Assembly (NCBI GenBank): GCA_002440125.1 | Contig: DJRQ01000038.1 | Span: 10,060 to 73,937 of the forward strand | Length of the DNA: 63,878 bases | Source of the DNA: Bacillales bacterium UBA6356 | GTDB lineage: Bacteria > Bacillota_I > Bacilli_A > RFN20 > CAG-826 | Direction of reading: 5' to 3' | Shown: positions 57,446 to 63,878 of the stretch, one piece after another | Layout: each line of letters begins with the position of its first letter | Position numbering within the stretch: the first letter of the stretch is position 1 | Translations under genes and position numbers: made by a program | The notes under the pieces: model-generated | Told to the model about the DNA's origin: nothing | Databases searched by the model: none | The model's input: the letters and a program-made list of their open reading frames with translations, nothing else

Positions 57446-58063
57446 AACTGAAACCTCCATCTCAAGGAAAAGCGAAGATATGCCTTTCGTGAGACATTCT
57501 AGTTTCTATTACTAGATAGTCAAGCATAGAAAACTTTATTGCCTCAATTAAGCCTCATATCCCTAGCATAAAACGCTTGGAGGTTTTGGAAAGGGAAGAT
57601 GGGATCGTCTTCTTTTATCCATCATTGGGAAGCGTCCCGAATCGAGGAATGGGAAATGGGAATAAAAAGATCCTTAATAAATTCATAAGAAACACGCATA
57701 ACGGCAGAGTCAAAGGGATGGCGATATGGACGTTTTTCTGAACCGTTTTCGCCATGATGCCCTTCTTTCCGCTACGCAGTGACTTTGCTTAGGATGCTGG
57801 AGAAGAAGGTTTTCAAGGGCGTGTTTTACTCATACGAGCCAATCGATGTGAAATGCAAAATCAAAGAGTCATAGCGCTAGATTTTCGCCCTAAATTCCAA
57901 AATTAGGATTCTTTTCCTTCGCTAAAAAAGCCTTAGCCTTATAGGATGCTTTGTTTCTTAAATCCACCTGAAGACGTTTTTGTGATATTAGCCATGAAAT
58001 AGGGCAAAAAAGAGGGTTTATGATGAAAATAGCTTTTCGATTCTTTCTGAGAAATGAATGAAA

Positions 58064-58111
58064 TAATCTTCCAAAAAATCAATTAATCTTCCAAATGATT
58101 CTGGAAGAATA
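58064..58111. repeat. Repeat cluster downstream of the AlbA_2 gene
   Basis: TAATCTTCCA at 58064-58073 and 58084-58093 (20-bp phase), plus inverted TGGAAGAATA at 58102-58111, which is the exact reverse complement of the upstream 10-mer. Confidence 0.85.
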
Positions 58112-58128
58112 GGGAAAATAGATTCGTT

Positions 58129-59559
58129 TTATTCTCCATTATCCGAAATAAAATAACGTTTCCCTTTGGTCTTTTTTCCGTTCGTTTTGACAAGATTTGT
58201 CAGCAACAATTCCGTAACAATCGTGGATGTGGACGATTTTTTCATTCCGATTTGTTTGGAGAGCTCTTCGGTGGAGGCCCCCTCCGGATGAGCATTCAAA
58301 TAAGAAAGAATTTCCATTTTTTCTGTATAATGCGGCGTTTTTTGATTTAACTGAGCGAAATGAATAATGAGTGTGGTTCTTTTGGGATTGCTTTCAACTG
58401 CAAGAATAGGTTTTAAAAAACCATAAGAGCGGCACATCTCAAAAATGCTAGGTATGCCCGATCCAGCTCTATCAGAAACCTGAAGGAGCCTGAAATAATT
58501 CATTATGTTTTTATTGAGAGGATTGGTTACTCCACCTTCAATAGCTTGCTTGATGCCAACAGGAATATCTCCAGAATTAATGAAGGCAACATTATCGTAT
58601 GTTCTTTTGATAACGATTCCAGGGAGCGAAGAGAAATCGCAATTCGTTATGGCGTTGACCATGCCTTCAATAACAGAGCGTTTCACATCCTTTCCGTTCA
58701 TGTTGGCGACACCATCTTTTGCATTAAAAGGCTTTGGTAATCTTTGAATGAGATTCGAACTTACTAAGCGAAAAAAGTTAAACAAATTAGCATTAAAGGA
58801 ATAATCGTCCGATGCAATTCTGTTATCCCATCTCGTTTTTCCAGAAAAATTCTCTTGATAATCTAGAAAATAATTCGGACAAATTTGGGAAATGTCACTT
58901 TGCTGTCCAAAGAAGAGGACAGCACCATTTTTGAGAACTTCTTTCCCGTTCGCCTTTGTCAAAGCGCCAATCCGATAGAGAAAATCATGGTCGTTTAAAT
59001 CCCGAAAAGAGTTATTGGGATTTGCTTCATTGACTTCTTTACGGAACTCTCCCAAGGATTCTTTATCAATATTTGTTTCATCTAAATCAAGATAATTCGG
59101 AAGCACATCAAACCCCGTTCCTTTTTTTCTTAAAAGAAGCGATGCGATCTCATCTTCTGACATTAAAAAGTCGCCATCGCCAATTCTTTGATACGACTTC
59201 GATAAATTTCCATCAATATAAACGGGTTTGGCCCCAAGAGGAGCCTCTTTCACGACAAAACGAATGATTTTCTTTCCGTTAACATCAATAATTTGCACAT
59301 CTTCATCGGAAATGGAACAGTAACTGGTTTTTTTTGAATGGAGGGTGGAAATAAGGGCTTTCTTTTGCTCTTCTGGATTTGAAATGCCGACTATTGTGTT
59401 TAATTTTCCTTCCTTTATGCCCAAGTAAATGGTACCTCCCTCCGTATTAGAAAAGGAAGAATACGTATCGTAAAGACTATCTGGAATCTTTTTCCCTGAT
59501 TCTTTTAATTCTATTCGGAGACCTTCTTTTAAGGTTCTTAAATAATTCTCGTTTTCCAT
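58129..59559 (-). CDS. AlbA_2 (Schlafen-like) domain / HATPase_c_4 / C-terminal wHTH putative DNA-binding regulator (often mis-annotated as RecG-like)
   Basis: LRIELKESGKKIPDSLYDTYSSFSNTEGGTIYLGIKEG is an AlbA_2 core. C-terminal ILSYLNAHPEGASTEELSKQIGMKKSSTSTIVTELLLTNLV is a wHTH. Start moved to ATG 59559; the TTG at 59610 in the track lies in the predicted -35 box. Confidence 0.8.
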   Translation of the reverse strand: MENENYLRTLKEGLRIELKESGKKIPDSLYDTYSSFSNTEGGTIYLGIKEGKLNTIVGISNPEEQKKALISTLHSKKTSYCSISDEDVQIIDVNGKKIIRFVVKEAPLGAKPVYIDGNLSKSYQRIGDGDFLMSEDEIASLLLRKKGTGFDVLPNYLDLDETNIDKESLGEFRKEVNEANPNNSFRDLNDHDFLYRIGALTKANGKEVLKNGAVLFFGQQSDISQICPNYFLDYQENFSGKTRWDNRIASDDYSFNANLFNFFRLVSSNLIQRLPKPFNAKDGVANMNGKDVKRSVIEGMVNAITNCDFSSLPGIVIKRTYDNVAFINSGDIPVGIKQAIEGGVTNPLNKNIMNYFRLLQVSDRAGSGIPSIFEMCRSYGFLKPILAVESNPKRTTLIIHFAQLNQKTPHYTEKMEILSYLNAHPEGASTEELSKQIGMKKSSTSTIVTELLLTNLVKTNGKKTKGKRYFISDNGE

Positions 59560-59582
59560 ATAAAGCCATCCTGCATATAAAA

Positions 59583-59610
59583 AGTATAATGTATTCTTCC
59601 AAGATTGCAA
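59583..59610 (-). promoter_or_regulatory. Candidate promoter of the AlbA_2 gene, overlapped by one repeat copy
   Basis: Minus strand: TTGCAA (59610-59605), 16-nt spacer containing TGGAAGAATA, then TATACT (59588-59583). Confidence 0.4.
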
Positions 59611-59674
59611 TTATTCTTCCATTTTCTTTAATATTCTTCCAAGGAAAAAATTATTCTTCCAAAGTATTCTGGAA
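59592..59674. repeat. Four exact copies of TATTCTTCCA phased at exactly 20 bp, plus a variant
   Basis: Copies at 59592-59601, 59612-59621, 59632-59641 and 59652-59661; variant TATTCTGGAA at 59665-59674. Confidence 0.9.
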
Positions 59675-59854
59675 AATTAAGAAAACACAAAAAATAAGTG
59701 TCATCTGAAAAATCTCCTTAGCGAAAGCAGCTCGCTTTGGAAAGAGGTAAGGCCAGAGGCTTAAGACAGCGCTTCCTTCCATCGCTCTTCTTAACGCGCT
59801 TATCAAACAAGGCTTGGGATTGGCACTATTGAAGGGCGTTCCCCCGATTATTCG

Positions 59855-60067
59855 TCATCTAATGCAATGGAAGTTAAGAAATGCGATAAGTGCAATTTTT
59901 TGCGTTTTTGCACTTATAAATGATATAGCGAAGCCAGCGGTGTTCTGCGTATTCGGTTGAGAATTGAAGATCATCCACAAAAATATATTGATTGGATGGG
60001 GTGTGCCCTCGTAGAACTCATCCAGAGCCAAACCATACGGGAGACCGCCATAAGAAACAATCTCCAT
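59855..60067 (-). pseudogene. Possible remnant of a second AlbA_2/HATPase_c_4-type gene
   Basis: The 70-aa ORF starts EIVSYGGLPYGLALDEFYEG, resembling the GGLP-x-G...E-x-x-x-G segment of this family, then degenerates. No SD and no upstream domain. Confidence 0.25.
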
Positions 60068-60220
60068 CCTATCGCTGTAGGTGTACGAGGCGAATAGATA
60101 GTTGCAATATGTGTTTTGAAGCCACTATTTTTCATCGACATATCAAGGCTTGTAACAAGGCAAAATGCATGTTAAAGCAAATTGTGCTCATCCTTTCGGC
60201 TTTTAATGAATTGAACCGCT

Positions 60221-61861
60221 TTATTTTTTAGACCAAGTAAAGCCGAACAGCGCTTGGCCGTCCCCACCGAGTTCCACCACTTCATGCTCGATGATAATTT
60301 TTTGTATTTCGATACAAAATACATTGATTCTGTCTATGGCGATAAAGATCTGCTTTTCAGCTTTGTTATAAAGCTTGAATAATCCTTCAACCGGTTCATC
60401 CCATATGTTCTTAAACAGCATAGAATCATTGATGATAAATGGAAGGGGGGTCAAATCCAGGATGGCAAGGTCAAACAAAATCAGGCTTTTATATTCCGTT
60501 CCCGTGCCTTTGTCGTTTGGAGTTTTATAGCTGTAATGGCTAAAATCAGCAAGCTTCAAAGAGGGTGGCATCCTCTTCTCTAGGTAAATGCAATCGTTCA
60601 ATTCATTCAGTTTAGCGTTTATTGCATTTTCCATTTCAAGCAAAACATATCCGTAATCATCGTTCATTTGCCGGCTAATATTGCCGGCTTTTTCCTTCAT
60701 GCTTTTCACTTTTTCGAACAAAGAAATCTGACTTTCGAGTGTTTGGATTTCGTTCTTCTTTTTATAAAGAGTATCCAAGAATGTTTTCGGGATTCTCGGA
60801 GAGACGTTGTTTTTCAACAGTTCGGCATTGATTTCATCTATTCTCTTTTGGATTTCGTTTATTTTGTAAGAAAGTTCTTCTTTTTGCGCATTTACTTCTT
60901 GATTGACGGTTTTACTCAGCTGCTTTTGGAATTCGTTCATTTCCAAAATCGGTTTCAAATCAATTTCAGGAAATAATGTGACAAGTTTTTGCCTATCCTC
61001 TTCGTCCATGAGCAAGGAATCCCCCGTCATTTCTTGCAACGTTTTAAGCTGGATAGATAACGATTTTTTCTCTCTATAAAGATAGATTTGCTCCGATTTG
61101 AGATCGATGTCCCTTTGGGAAATGGTTTCATCTATCGATATAGACGCTCGATTCTGTTCGTTTACCATCTTCTCGACTTCATCTTGCAGTCTCTTAATCT
61201 CTTGTTTTGCCTCCTCCAACGCTGAAAACGTCTTGATGGGAGAATAAACGATGTTGTATTTCTGCGCCTCGTCCATTGCTTTCTTGGCTTTCTTCGCTTC
61301 CGCGACTTTTTGAATCGATTCTTCGACGATGCTTGTTTTTCCGAACAAATCGATCAAAACGCTGATGCCATTTTCATCTGTCGCATCGTTTGCGTAAGTC
61401 TTCAGCGGTTTATTGACATCATAATTGTTCTTCCCATGAACCCTGGAAAAGGCGTCCACCAAAGCTCGGAACGTCTTTTTTGTGGACGTTCCGAAATATT
61501 TTTCCTTTAGGAACGCACATAGTTCACCAATTGGCTTTTTGTCACTGATTTTGCCGTATGAACTGTCGCAATCATAAAAATGTCCGAAATCAGCTGTGTC
61601 CCTACAAAAATGATATTCAATGTTATCGAATTCGAATGTAAAGCAAATGACATGGTCTCCTATGTTTTGCCTCACGTCAGAATCTTTGACACAATAGGCG
61701 TTCCCGCCAAAGCAAAAGTCAACAATGAGCAACAAGCTAGATTTGCCGATGGAATTCAAGGCATCGTTTGCGCCGACCACACAATTCAGCCCGTTTAGAA
61801 AATGAATGGTTTTGTTCGGAATATGATCCGAAAACTTTTCACATTTGATTTCTTTTAGCAT
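60221..61861 (-). CDS. Coiled-coil ABC/SMC-like ATPase (DUF2326-like; candidate ABC-3C / Lamassu-type ATPase subunit)
   Basis: 546 aa. N-terminal head FLNGLNCVVGANDALNSIGKSSLLLIVDFCFGG (P-loop GKS with an insertion). About 200 aa of heptad-rich E/K/Q sequence (residues ~185-400). C-terminal head GTGTEYKSLILFDLAILDLTPLPFIINDSMLFKNI (Walker-B-like hhhhND). Its ATG overlaps the upstream stop by 7 nt. Confidence 0.7.
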   Translation of the reverse strand: MLKEIKCEKFSDHIPNKTIHFLNGLNCVVGANDALNSIGKSSLLLIVDFCFGGNAYCVKDSDVRQNIGDHVICFTFEFDNIEYHFCRDTADFGHFYDCDSSYGKISDKKPIGELCAFLKEKYFGTSTKKTFRALVDAFSRVHGKNNYDVNKPLKTYANDATDENGISVLIDLFGKTSIVEESIQKVAEAKKAKKAMDEAQKYNIVYSPIKTFSALEEAKQEIKRLQDEVEKMVNEQNRASISIDETISQRDIDLKSEQIYLYREKKSLSIQLKTLQEMTGDSLLMDEEDRQKLVTLFPEIDLKPILEMNEFQKQLSKTVNQEVNAQKEELSYKINEIQKRIDEINAELLKNNVSPRIPKTFLDTLYKKKNEIQTLESQISLFEKVKSMKEKAGNISRQMNDDYGYVLLEMENAINAKLNELNDCIYLEKRMPPSLKLADFSHYSYKTPNDKGTGTEYKSLILFDLAILDLTPLPFIINDSMLFKNIWDEPVEGLFKLYNKAEKQIFIAIDRINVFCIEIQKIIIEHEVVELGGDGQALFGFTWSKK

Positions 61862-62070
61862 TTTCTAATCCTCCCATCTTTGAGTAATTCCACCTTTTGA
61901 ATTGCGAATAAAGCGCTCATGCCATCAAGAAATTCTTTTGCGTTCATCTTCGAAGAAACCTTAATGTAAATTTCGGTCGGAAACATATCATTGTTGATAG
62001 CATTCAAAATTTCGGCCATGTGATAGATGACTGTTGTTTTGTATCGATTTACCTTATTTGGAAATTTCAT
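61855..62070 (-). CDS. 71-aa protein, candidate middle/adaptor component of the cassette
   Basis: MKFPNKVNRYKTTVIYHMAEILNAINNDMF... It overlaps the upstream gene by 17 nt and the downstream ATPase gene by 7 nt. Size and position match ABC-3C middle components. Confidence 0.55.
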   Translation of the reverse strand: MKFPNKVNRYKTTVIYHMAEILNAINNDMFPTEIYIKVSSKMNAKEFLDGMSALFAIQKVELLKDGRIRKC

Positions 62071-63175
62071 GGAACACCTCGCAGCTTTGAACGAAATAGG
62101 AAACGATGATTTCCGCTATTGATTGTTCGCAGCTTGCAGCTCTGGATACTTGATTAACAAGGCAATTGAAAATGGCCTCTCTATTATCGGAAACTTTCTC
62201 CGCTTTCAAAAAAGCGATTTTAATCGACGCAGAGAGAAACTCATACGATCGTTTATCTTCCCCGTCTAATTCTCCAAAAGTGTCATAAAGCGTGGAAAAG
62301 TAAGAAGACACGTTCATTTTGATTTTAGCATAAAGAGCAAAGTCCCCCTTTTTATCGATTTTTTGGCTTATCTTGAGGCTCTTCATGCTCAGTTTAACTT
62401 TTGTGTCATTTCTTTGCCTCAATAGACAATCGATCGCCGCCATAAGCTTTTCATTGATTTCGATGGAACCGGTTTGCTTTCGGAGATTATTCTTTTCCTC
62501 AAATGACTTTTTAATCTTCGCCAAATCCTTGCCTAATGAACCATTTCTGCACTTTTCGGCACATTTTCTGCAAAGCCCTATTGATTTTGTGACGCCGCAT
62601 GGCGATGAGCCATCTACTCCGATTGCAACGATCGCATTCTCTTTAGAGGAATCCATATCGAGCGGGCGAGCACAGGTCGGACAAATACCGGCATCTTCCT
62701 GGAAAAGTTCAGAGCGCAGCGTGGCTGTCCCTTCCAGTTGAGCACTCCGAAACAAAGCGGAATTGTCCAAAATTATCTTCCGCAACAAATTAGAAACTTC
62801 CTCGGCAAAATTTTCTTTTGTGACGTTCCCGTCATAGCAACCAAAAGTGCTCACGAAGTCATCCAAAGCATAGCCTTGGATTTGGGTCTTTAAAACCTCA
62901 ATCAAATCCGACATATCCAAAAAGGGATATATCTTTTCCGCCACTTTTGAAATCGAATACACCCCGTTGCAAAGGTTCCTTTTTTGCTTCGCCGACATAT
63001 GGGCAATTTCTTCCCTCAGACCCTCATTCTCCGATGTGATCGAGTTCAAAATCAGCAAATCAAAAAGTACTTCCTTGCTTTTGCATATCCCTTTTAAGAA
63101 TGGGTGAATCAACCTGCACAAGTCTGAAAATGTCATTATTTGAAACTTCCCCGAACTTCCCTCGACTTCCTTCAC
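62054..63175 (-). CDS. 373-aa protein of unknown function with a central Cys cluster; candidate effector/sensor component
   Basis: GTG start at 63175; alternative ATG at 63136 (MTFSDLCRL...) preceded by GGGGAAG. Cys cluster C165/C168/C193/C202/C205/C209 (62549-62683). Helical C-terminal region ending IVSYFVQSCEVFHEISK. Confidence 0.65.
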   Translation of the reverse strand: MKEVEGSSGKFQIMTFSDLCRLIHPFLKGICKSKEVLFDLLILNSITSENEGLREEIAHMSAKQKRNLCNGVYSISKVAEKIYPFLDMSDLIEVLKTQIQGYALDDFVSTFGCYDGNVTKENFAEEVSNLLRKIILDNSALFRSAQLEGTATLRSELFQEDAGICPTCARPLDMDSSKENAIVAIGVDGSSPCGVTKSIGLCRKCAEKCRNGSLGKDLAKIKKSFEEKNNLRKQTGSIEINEKLMAAIDCLLRQRNDTKVKLSMKSLKISQKIDKKGDFALYAKIKMNVSSYFSTLYDTFGELDGEDKRSYEFLSASIKIAFLKAEKVSDNREAIFNCLVNQVSRAASCEQSIAEIIVSYFVQSCEVFHEISK

Positions 63176-63292
63176 TACCCTAGGGAAAAGGCCCGATTTT
63201 GTAATCTATCTCCTGACCACGAGTAATTTCGGTAATCGATGACAATATTGTACCAAAAGAATCGTGGCGCCCATACCTTTAGGAGATATTGA

Positions 63293-63878
63293 ATGAAAAA
63301 AATTATCATTGACGATGGCTTCCAGGACTACTTGGCGGAAGGAGCCAAATTTGAAGGGAAAGATGGCATCCCTTGCCTATTGAATCAAAAACATGCCATC
63401 CCAACATCCCTTATTCCATTTGATAAAGCGAGAGCTGCTAAAGAGAAGCATGGGTATCTGCATTTCTATATCCATGACTGCAAGTACGGCGACTTTTTAA
63501 CGAACACACGGAAATACGATGGGATAGTTTCGCAATACGACGGAATCATCACCCCAGACCCAACCATCACCATTGGAATGCCCCATTGCATACAAGCAAC
63601 TTCGACTTATATGAATCGGGCCATCGGCTATTACGAACAATGCAGAGGCATTTCCGTGATTCCGAACGTTCGATGGGGCGACTCTACGACATTTGACTTT
63701 TGCTTTCTTGGCATTCCAAAGCAATCCGTTGTCGCTATAAGCACACACGGCGCCATTGCCAAGGATAAGTCCAACCAAAATCTCCTCAGGCGAATCTTCA
63801 AAGATGGTTTAAGGAAAATGCTTGAGGTTCTAGAGCCGACGGATGTCTTGGTTTATGGCCGTATGCCATCAGATATTT
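63293..63878 (+). CDS. DUF4417-like protein (partial; 3' end beyond the right window edge)
   Basis: Not in the ORF track because it has no stop. SD AGGAGA then ATG 63293. Translation: MKKIIIDDGFQDYLAEGAKFEGKDGIPCLLNQKHAIPTSLIPFDKARAAKEKHGYLHFYIHDCKYGDFL...GIITPDPTITIGMPHCIQATSTYMNRAIGYYEQCRGISVIPNVRWGDSTTFDFCFLGIPKQSVVAIST..., which matches my recollection of the DUF4417 pattern. Confidence 0.65.
   Translation, partial: MKKIIIDDGFQDYLAEGAKFEGKDGIPCLLNQKHAIPTSLIPFDKARAAKEKHGYLHFYIHDCKYGDFLTNTRKYDGIVSQYDGIITPDPTITIGMPHCIQATSTYMNRAIGYYEQCRGISVIPNVRWGDSTTFDFCFLGIPKQSVVAISTHGAIAKDKSNQNLLRRIFKDGLRKMLEVLEPTDVLVYGRMPSDI

Follow-up and report, generated by a model that had tools for sequence, protein, structure and literature searches.

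Lamassu is among the commonest families of bacterial immune systems, and its solved mechanism relies on the release of a nuclease. In the solved complexes, two LmuB subunits and LmuC (one LmuC in Vibrio cholerae, A1:B2:C1) hold LmuA through its C-terminal oligomerisation domain, and LmuA is released upon the sensing of DNA ends or replication origins to form an active tetramer. The effectors of Lamassu occupy the N-terminal slot of LmuA, and the systems of the ABC three-component type (ABC-3C) have been folded into this family (Haudiquet et al. 2025, bioRxiv 10.1101/2025.04.02.646746). According to the same study, the short LmuB proteins average ~600 amino acids (aa) and carry a Walker B motif of the form hhhhD[Q/S/T/E], HNH is among the effectors specific to short Lamassu, and one clade has seemingly lost its effector. 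Moreover, its DefenseFinder table lists the subtypes 'Lamassu_HNH' (LmuB_Short of 536 aa, LmuC_MC7 of 73 aa and LmuA_HNH of 257 aa) and 'Lamassu_Hypothetical' (LmuA_CTD11, LmuC_MC7 and LmuB_Short of 535 aa). The locus analysed here is a three-gene cassette found in a DNA stretch of 63,878 nucleotides (nt) of Bacillales bacterium UBA6356 (contig DJRQ01000038.1), hereafter the window, in whose numbering all the positions are given. With a probability of about 0.62, this cassette would be a short type-II Lamassu-like (ABC-3C) anti-phage or anti-plasmid module with a sequester-and-release mechanism, in which the active site of the nuclease has been lost. Since matching trios are filed as short type-II Lamassu by Haudiquet et al. 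(2025), the kind of cassette is already catalogued, and the new element is the first protein, with its dead HNH.

To begin with, the three proteins were compared with Pfam, the matches being judged against its curated cut-offs. The ATPase belongs to DUF2326 (PF10088; 58.9 bits, cut-off 28.7, E 5.9e-16), the middle protein to ABC-3C MC7 (PF20292; 48.4 bits, cut-off 27, E 9.7e-13) and the C-terminus of the first protein to ABC-3C CTD11 (PF20277; 90.2 bits, cut-off 27.7, E 2.2e-25). These are the three kinds of profile match (DUF2326, a middle component and a C-terminal domain of ABC-3C) anticipated by an earlier reading of this DNA, hereafter the original prediction. Relatives of the ATPase were then sought in one genome per species over 185,579 genomes, yielding 324 (~0.2% of species), mostly in Bacillota, with others scattered in Bacteroidota, Actinomycetota and elsewhere, a patchy and multi-phylum distribution. 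In the annotated set (80 fetched loci plus earlier ones, described with hidden Markov models built in this analysis), the order CTD11, MC7, ATPase was kept in 78 of 78 non-redundant loci, that is, in every locus with room for it. A lack of synteny, which the original prediction had named as a way for its assignment to fail, was thus not encountered, nor did any profile point to a known non-defence function. Therefore, the membership of the cassette in the ABC-3C or short Lamassu class, as proposed there, is well supported by the Pfam matches of all three proteins and the kept gene order.

The likeness to short type-II Lamassu covers the three-gene architecture, the sizes of the ATPase (~535-546 aa) and of the middle protein (~71-77 aa), the MC7 and CTD11 families, and the Walker B of the window ATPase (FIINDS, FIIN-D479-S480), which fits the published pattern. 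In contrast, the listed LmuA_HNH has 257 aa, while the window protein has 360 aa, an additional N-terminal domain and an HNH module without catalytic residues. Regarding the ABC-3C systems (Krishnan, Burroughs, Iyer, Aravind 2020; Pfam CTD1-12 and MC1-8), the likeness consists of direct CTD11 and MC7 membership and a coiled-coil ABC ATPase. The split-head coiled-coil ATPase, the middle protein of an MC family, the C-terminus of a CTD family and the co-directional three-gene operon of that class were all found; what was not found is an N-terminal domain of the first protein recognisable as an enzymatic effector, a dead HNH fold and an unmatched helical domain being present instead. The features of the cassette are as follows:

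60221-63175, minus strand: three-gene cassette of three overlapping open reading frames (ORFs), from the ORF list
62054-63175, minus strand: first-gene ORF of 373 aa counted from a GTG, from the ORF list
62054-63136, minus strand: LmuA-like first gene of 360 aa from an ATG, from the gene call (N-terminal helical domain, dead HNH zinc module, linker helices and CTD11)
62696-63136, minus strand: N-terminal all-helical domain, named NdomA here, residues 1-147 (structure model; no Pfam family)
62522-62695, minus strand: HNH-derived Cys4 zinc module, residues 148-205 (strand-strand-helix topology, Foldseek, profile matches and motif table)
62072-62482, minus strand: CTD11 domain, residues 219-355 of 360 (PF20277; helical bundle in the structure model)
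61855-62070, minus strand: LmuC-like middle component gene, 71 aa (ORF list and Pfam MC7)
60221-61861, minus strand: short-LmuB-like coiled-coil ABC ATPase gene of the DUF2326 family, 546 aa
61739-61762, minus strand: Walker A or P-loop A34-LNSIGKS41, with the catalytic lysine K40 (N36, S37, G39, K40 and S41 invariant in the family alignment)
60422-60508, minus strand: signature-like G452-T-G-T455 and Walker B F475-IINDS480 (alignment and sequence inspection)

The first protein was modelled with AlphaFold2 (predicted local distance difference test, pLDDT, of 77), resulting in an all-helical part (residues 1-147), a strand-strand-helix unit (~150-200), linker helices and the CTD11 helical bundle. 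When the 360-aa model was searched with Foldseek against PDB and BFVD, the confident local matches were to HNH domains alone (Cap5 with a probability of 0.93, GeoCas9 with 0.72, and many phage HNH proteins), with no global match and nothing for the N-terminal domain or CTD11. Moreover, a profile of 41 family members matched the HNH of Escherichia coli McrA (6ghc, E 4e-7) and Cap5 (7rwm, E 1e-5), and an N-terminal profile search also reached a multi-HNH protein. The module has the strand-strand-helix metal finger and the four zinc cysteines of the HNH endonuclease fold (C152, C155, C189 and C192, all invariant), sharing the treble-clef zinc fold and a detectable profile relationship with McrA and with the SAVED-HNH protein Cap5 of the cyclic-oligonucleotide-based anti-phage signalling systems (CBASS). 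Unlike these two, the window protein keeps none of the catalytic His, Asn and His residues, and in their place its clade presents G, K and A; no histidine occurs in residues 148-205 of the protein, and none of the Pfam HNH models matched it. Because all three catalytic positions are replaced, the HNH module was judged to be catalytically dead. The original prediction had seen no recognisable effector domain in the first protein; it was right in that an intact HNH is absent, but an HNH-derived zinc module is present, with its catalytic residues gone. A new effector chemistry in the cassette, also raised there, is possible.

The HNH module was aligned across all loci, and first proteins whose CxxC is preceded by over 110 residues were taken as long forms, which comprised 54 of the 72 classifiable relatives sampled. 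None of these 54 keeps the H-N-H triad, each being without at least one catalytic His, so the module appears degenerate in every sampled long form. The short first proteins (250-280 aa, from Bacillus, Paenibacillus and others) present the full triad in 18 out of 18 cases (AHIYP ... N.IALC..CH). The two short forms scanned against Pfam (loci L044, from Bacillus mediterraneensis, and L047) passed the HNH_2 cut-off, while the long forms failed the Pfam HNH models. Hence, a label such as 'Lamassu_HNH' or 'HNH effector', when based on similarity of fold or profile, can be attached to a protein that is catalytically dead. It is highly improbable that the HNH-like module is still a nuclease acting through non-canonical residues. 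In favour of such a nuclease are the strict conservation of the fold and of the four zinc cysteines, the purifying selection on the module and the conserved acidic residues E147 and D175 nearby; against it, the window module has no His at all and its clade has Lys for Asn, and the models passed by the short forms are failed by the long ones. To our knowledge, all characterised HNH enzymes use the first His as general base.

Selection on the cassette was assessed against the 83% identical homologue in locus L011 from the ratio of non-synonymous to synonymous substitution rates (dN/dS). The values, which are approximate since dS is saturated, were 0.11-0.12 for the HNH module, 0.05 for the N-terminal domain, 0.06 for the C-terminal part and 0.06 for the whole first protein, together with 0.06 for the ATPase and 0.16 for MC7, thus ranging from 0.05 to 0.16 in all the parts of the cassette. 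The dead HNH module is accordingly under purifying selection and not decaying. The reading of the cassette as a decaying relic was rejected, with dN/dS far below 1 and all three ORFs intact. The retained zinc-stabilised fold probably constitutes a DNA-binding module, and the CTD11 that follows is presumed, by analogy, to be a docking and oligomerisation domain.

In front of the dead module, NdomA comprises ten short helices modelled with a pLDDT of ~90, for which no Foldseek match was found in PDB or BFVD. An exhaustive profile search with residues 1-228 gathered 95 clusters, mostly of CTD11 proteins of 350-400 aa, and a set of ~200-aa proteins with an Asn/Gly-rich tail that have NdomA in common over residues 1-130 only. 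Distant members matched positions 1-150 of the PADLOC LmuA model PDLC03857 (E 1e-11 to 1e-19) and, weakly, the N-termini of HamA models. In 18 long-form CTD11 proteins, a second N-terminal domain of ~160 aa without a Pfam match precedes the degenerate HNH (loci L023, L024, L026, L027, L036-L040, L042, L045, L060, L063, L079, L080, L086, L089 and L090), and one of these proteins weakly matched the N-terminus of a HamA model (E 1.6e-5). The identity of this domain with NdomA was rejected (hhalign probability of 9%), for which reason the extensions without an NdomA match were treated as a second domain. With two different domains before the dead HNH, the slot is variable, as effector slots are.

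These observations bear on whether the N-terminal helical domain is a new toxic effector, activated by oligomerisation, that has taken the place of the HNH. The domain sits in the effector slot of Lamassu, the N-terminal extension coincides perfectly with the loss of the triad (kept in 0 of 54 long forms), at least two unrelated domains alternate there as would be expected of swappable effectors, and NdomA is under strong purifying selection (dN/dS 0.05). In addition, it is the sole recognisable domain in the first gene of an operon with an AAA_13 ATPase, and it matches the LmuA model. However, the wider NdomA family conserves hardly any polar residue, with only F3 and G58 being near-invariant, which argues against an enzyme; there is no fold match, and in the HamA proteins weakly reached an active nuclease follows the N-terminus, which fits an accessory or sensor role. 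On balance, an N-domain effector is considered doubtful.

The operon just mentioned was observed in locus L096 (5001-8644; also in L097 and L098), where NdomA heads a 227-aa protein with an Asn/Gly-rich tail, followed by a 215-aa protein and a 761-aa AAA_13 ATPase, within an element presenting two serine recombinases and adjoining cytosine methylases. It looks like a further Lamassu-like system without a recognisable enzyme.

The complexes of V. cholerae DdmABC (Lamassu Vc-Cap4) and Salmonella LmuACB are the likely mechanistic template for the cassette, which, like them, combines a CTD-bearing effector with a middle component and with an SMC-like ABC ATPase whose Walker A contains K40. They differ in the families of all three proteins (CTD7 and MC3 there, CTD11 and MC7 here) and in the effector, which there is an active Cap4 nuclease. 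By analogy with them, we infer a sequester-and-release mechanism for the cassette. The dimer of the DUF2326 ATPase and the 71-aa MC7 protein would hold the CTD11 tail of the 360-aa protein, keeping it monomeric and inert; the ATPase heads would bind foreign DNA ends or replication structures; and the freed 360-aa protein would oligomerise through CTD11 and become active. Given that all the ancestral HNH catalytic residues are replaced, the toxic or restrictive activity would have to reside in the N-domain, in DNA binding by the dead HNH that depends on oligomers, or in a partner, of which the neighbouring DUF4417 module is an example. A more specific version, proposed tentatively, is that of an 'HNH' Lamassu branch whose nuclease has been switched off with the zinc fold kept, acting either through an N-domain that becomes toxic or inhibitory upon release and oligomerisation or through a recruited DUF4417 enzyme.

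In 54 of the 72 classifiable relatives, the nuclease active site is lost, while sensor, adaptor and docking domain all remain under purifying selection. If these systems still defend, their output must differ, which would make them a natural test of a Lamassu sensor driving non-nuclease effectors and would provide a function for an orphan helical domain and possibly for DUF4417.

Regarding the ATPase, the original prediction of a split ABC/SMC-type head was borne out, with the Walker A in the N-terminal half, the signature-like GTGT and the Walker B in the C-terminal half, and a spacer of ~250 residues, rich in E, K, Q and L and poor in Pro and Gly, in between. The Walker B Asp479 is followed by Ser480 and not by Glu, both D and S being invariant in the family alignment, and KQIFIAID sits where the H-loop would be. 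No CxxC zinc hook was found in the 546 aa. The P-loop insertion previously claimed does not exist, since A34-L-N-S-I-G39-K40-S41 corresponds, position by position, to the ABC consensus G-x-N-G-x-G-K-S; the window ATPase has Ala (A34) at the first Gly, which its relatives keep. A housekeeping SMC, RecN or SbcC identity was tried and rejected, as the matches were marginal (11.9 bits to Pfam SMC_N, with a cut-off of 40, and E 0.008 to Rad50 over 45 residues). Its neighbours are the MC7 and CTD11 genes, not SbcD/Mre11 or kleisins, and the family matches LmuB models instead of grouping with housekeeping SMC, RecN, RecF or SbcC proteins, a grouping that would have contradicted the original prediction.

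Comparisons with models of defence systems were mostly informative through the relatives. The window's own three proteins had no useful PADLOC or NCBIfam matches, the window ATPase reaching the PADLOC model PDC-M68B (E 2.7e-6) over the P-loop only and the window first protein not matching PDC-M68A. Among 19 ATPase relatives, 13 matched PADLOC LmuB models (best E 2e-14) and 18 matched PDC-M68B, and relatives of the first protein matched PDC-M68A over the HNH and CTD11 part (E 1e-8 to 4e-13). The relatives thus match both models of the candidate system PDC-M68, which differs in having no model for MC7; moreover, PDC systems are candidates and not validated systems. The MC7 proteins matched no PADLOC model. 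The ATPase profile reached the solved LmuB (9hqu) within the coiled coil (E 2e-4), the ATPase matched PHROG 5467 (E 2e-108), and PHROG families of unknown function cover all three proteins.

A defence role of the cassette is likely, and besides these family relationships it is favoured by the carriage of the trio in prophages and on plasmids, by the low G+C of the region and by a Schlafen/AlbA_2 neighbour. Several points weigh against the sequester-and-release reading given above. With the PADLOC Lamassu models, the window ATPase gave an LmuB match of only E 0.0047 and the other two proteins gave none. The LmuC proteins of the solved complexes are much larger than the 71-aa middle protein. No catalytic effector was recognised in the cassette, and an abortive-infection output is an assumption; the saturation of dS mentioned above counts here as well. 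Furthermore, the searched literature held no phage test of the DUF2326/MC7/CTD11 subfamily, no phage assay of the CTD11/HNH, MC7 and LmuB_Short subtype being found in Haudiquet et al. (2025), and neither a mention of DUF2326 in a defence context nor any of PDC-M68.

This gap in experimental defence data, together with the split ATPase ORFs of some relatives (L015, L017 and L018), is what would favour a cassette unrelated to defence, either a housekeeping or mobile-element DNA-maintenance complex of the SMC-like type or a decaying relic. Such an origin is very unlikely in view of the sporadic distribution (~0.2% of species), the transport of the cassette as prophage and plasmid cargo, the marginal SMC_N and Rad50 matches, the three intact genes under purifying selection, and the matches of the intact-HNH relatives to the HNH effector (Cap5-type) models of CBASS. 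In particular, Streptococcus prophages (Javan422 and phiStag1) and plasmids have the trio among their cargo, and in phiStag1 it is placed between replication genes and an IS66.

The 74-aa gene at the MC7 position in Streptococcus phage phiStag1 (PP091924.1; L099 3729-3953) is annotated as 'MafI family immunity protein', which is probably a mislabel, because the gene sits between the CTD11 gene and the DUF2326 gene. In the metagenome-assembled relatives L015 (2286-3924), L017 (4901-6558) and L018 (7001-8642 and 8985-9997), frameshifts or assembly errors have divided the ATPase among two or three ORFs.

The layout of the cassette was reproduced exactly as originally described, with three minus-strand genes chained by overlaps of 17 nt (62054-62070, ATGAAATTTCCAAATAA) and 7 nt (61855-61861, ATGCTAA) and a middle gene of 71 aa confirmed by the ORF at 61855-62070. 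Only the length of the first gene had to be amended: the 373-aa ORF from GTG exists, but the most likely start is the ATG at 63136 (360 aa, MTFSDLC...), which is used by gene callers and by 17 of 22 aligned homologues. The identical 360-aa protein was found on 20 contigs. A ribosome-binding-like motif (GAGG or GGGAGG) lies 7-9 nt 5' of each downstream ATG, within the preceding gene, and both junctions also overlap among the called genes of distant loci (17 and 16 nt in L007; 17 and 23 nt in L008). Translational coupling of the cassette genes is plausible because of these motifs inside the upstream genes and the recurrence of the overlaps in distant loci.

Upstream of the cassette, a gene of the DUF4417 family is arranged head-to-head with it, the features being:

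63137-63292, no strand: divergent intergenic region of 156 nt separating the cassette from the DUF4417 gene, where both promoters are presumed to lie
63293-63878, plus strand: DUF4417 gene, the first 195 of its 221 codons, cut by the window end (Pfam DUF4417, E 1.7e-42)

In the full contig, the DUF4417 gene is followed by genes of 128 and 213 aa without a known family (L001 8161-9844), and in L018 a second copy of this 128-aa/213-aa pair was observed downstream of the cassette. Loci with ATPases that share only 44% and 34% identity with that of the window present the head-to-head arrangement too, and the pairing falls in three separate ATPase clades of a rough neighbour-joining tree of 73 sequences. 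The conserved cassette unit may thus extend to the divergent DUF4417 gene, as a companion module or a fourth component. The DUF4417 protein, modelled from database homologues (pLDDT 91), shows an alpha/beta fold with the invariant polar motifs HD, PD and NxRWG. Its Foldseek matches were weak and TIM-barrel-like (PdxJ, tRNA-guanine transglycosylase and transaldolase; E 7e-3 or worse, template modelling score of ~0.4 (0.44)), and its profile found nothing among the PDB sequences.

On these grounds, an effector acting in trans was considered, with the CTD11 protein as a sensor-coupled adaptor and the DUF4417 protein (with its 128-aa and 213-aa partners) as the effector of a four-to-six-gene unit; if true, this recruitment would represent a Lamassu sensor with an outsourced effector. 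The divergent DUF4417 gene lies 60-300 nt upstream in three separate clades, the ATPases of which share only 30-44% identity with that of the window, it accompanies 17 of the 55 loci without the first catalytic His compared with 0 of the 23 that keep it, and the confident model, an alpha/beta fold with invariant polar motifs, is as expected of an enzyme. However, no DUF4417 was found within 7 kb at 38 of the 55 dead-HNH loci, no domain is common to the DUF4417 and CTD11 proteins, and the fold matches are weak. Moreover, the three-gene DUF4417 module also occurs alone, beside Xre or ImmA-type regulators and with no ABC-3C genes nearby (L091-L095), so it may be an autonomous neighbour and not a component of the cassette, namely an uncharacterised module with a defence or mobile-element role of its own. 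Altogether, an effector in trans is regarded as unlikely.

Finally, the surroundings of the cassette were inspected. The final 6 kb of the window (58000-63878) have a G+C content of 0.37-0.41, compared with ~0.45 elsewhere, and in the full contig an AbiEii gene was observed past the cassette, at a distance of ~10 kb. Both observations are consistent with a variable accessory region located between MgtC and DegV, in which no integrase was seen. No att-like repeats flanking the cassette were obtained in the repeat search, and Rfam gave nothing at or above the gathering score across 56-63.9 kb. The promoter and terminator scan was uninformative, as promoter-like sites were less numerous than in shuffled sequence and absent from 63137-63292, consensus sigma-70 sites included. 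Near the cassette, a minus-strand gene of 493 aa (58129-59610) encodes a Schlafen-AlbA_2/HATPase_c_4/winged-helix protein and is bracketed by a 56-nt direct repeat (58062-58117 and the 59592-59685 region). Upstream of this gene, decamers of sequence TATTCTTCCA are repeated with an exact spacing of 20 nt (59592, 59612, 59632 and 59652), together with a palindrome, and they resemble operator or iteron sites, perhaps for the DNA-binding domain of the Schlafen-AlbA_2 protein itself.

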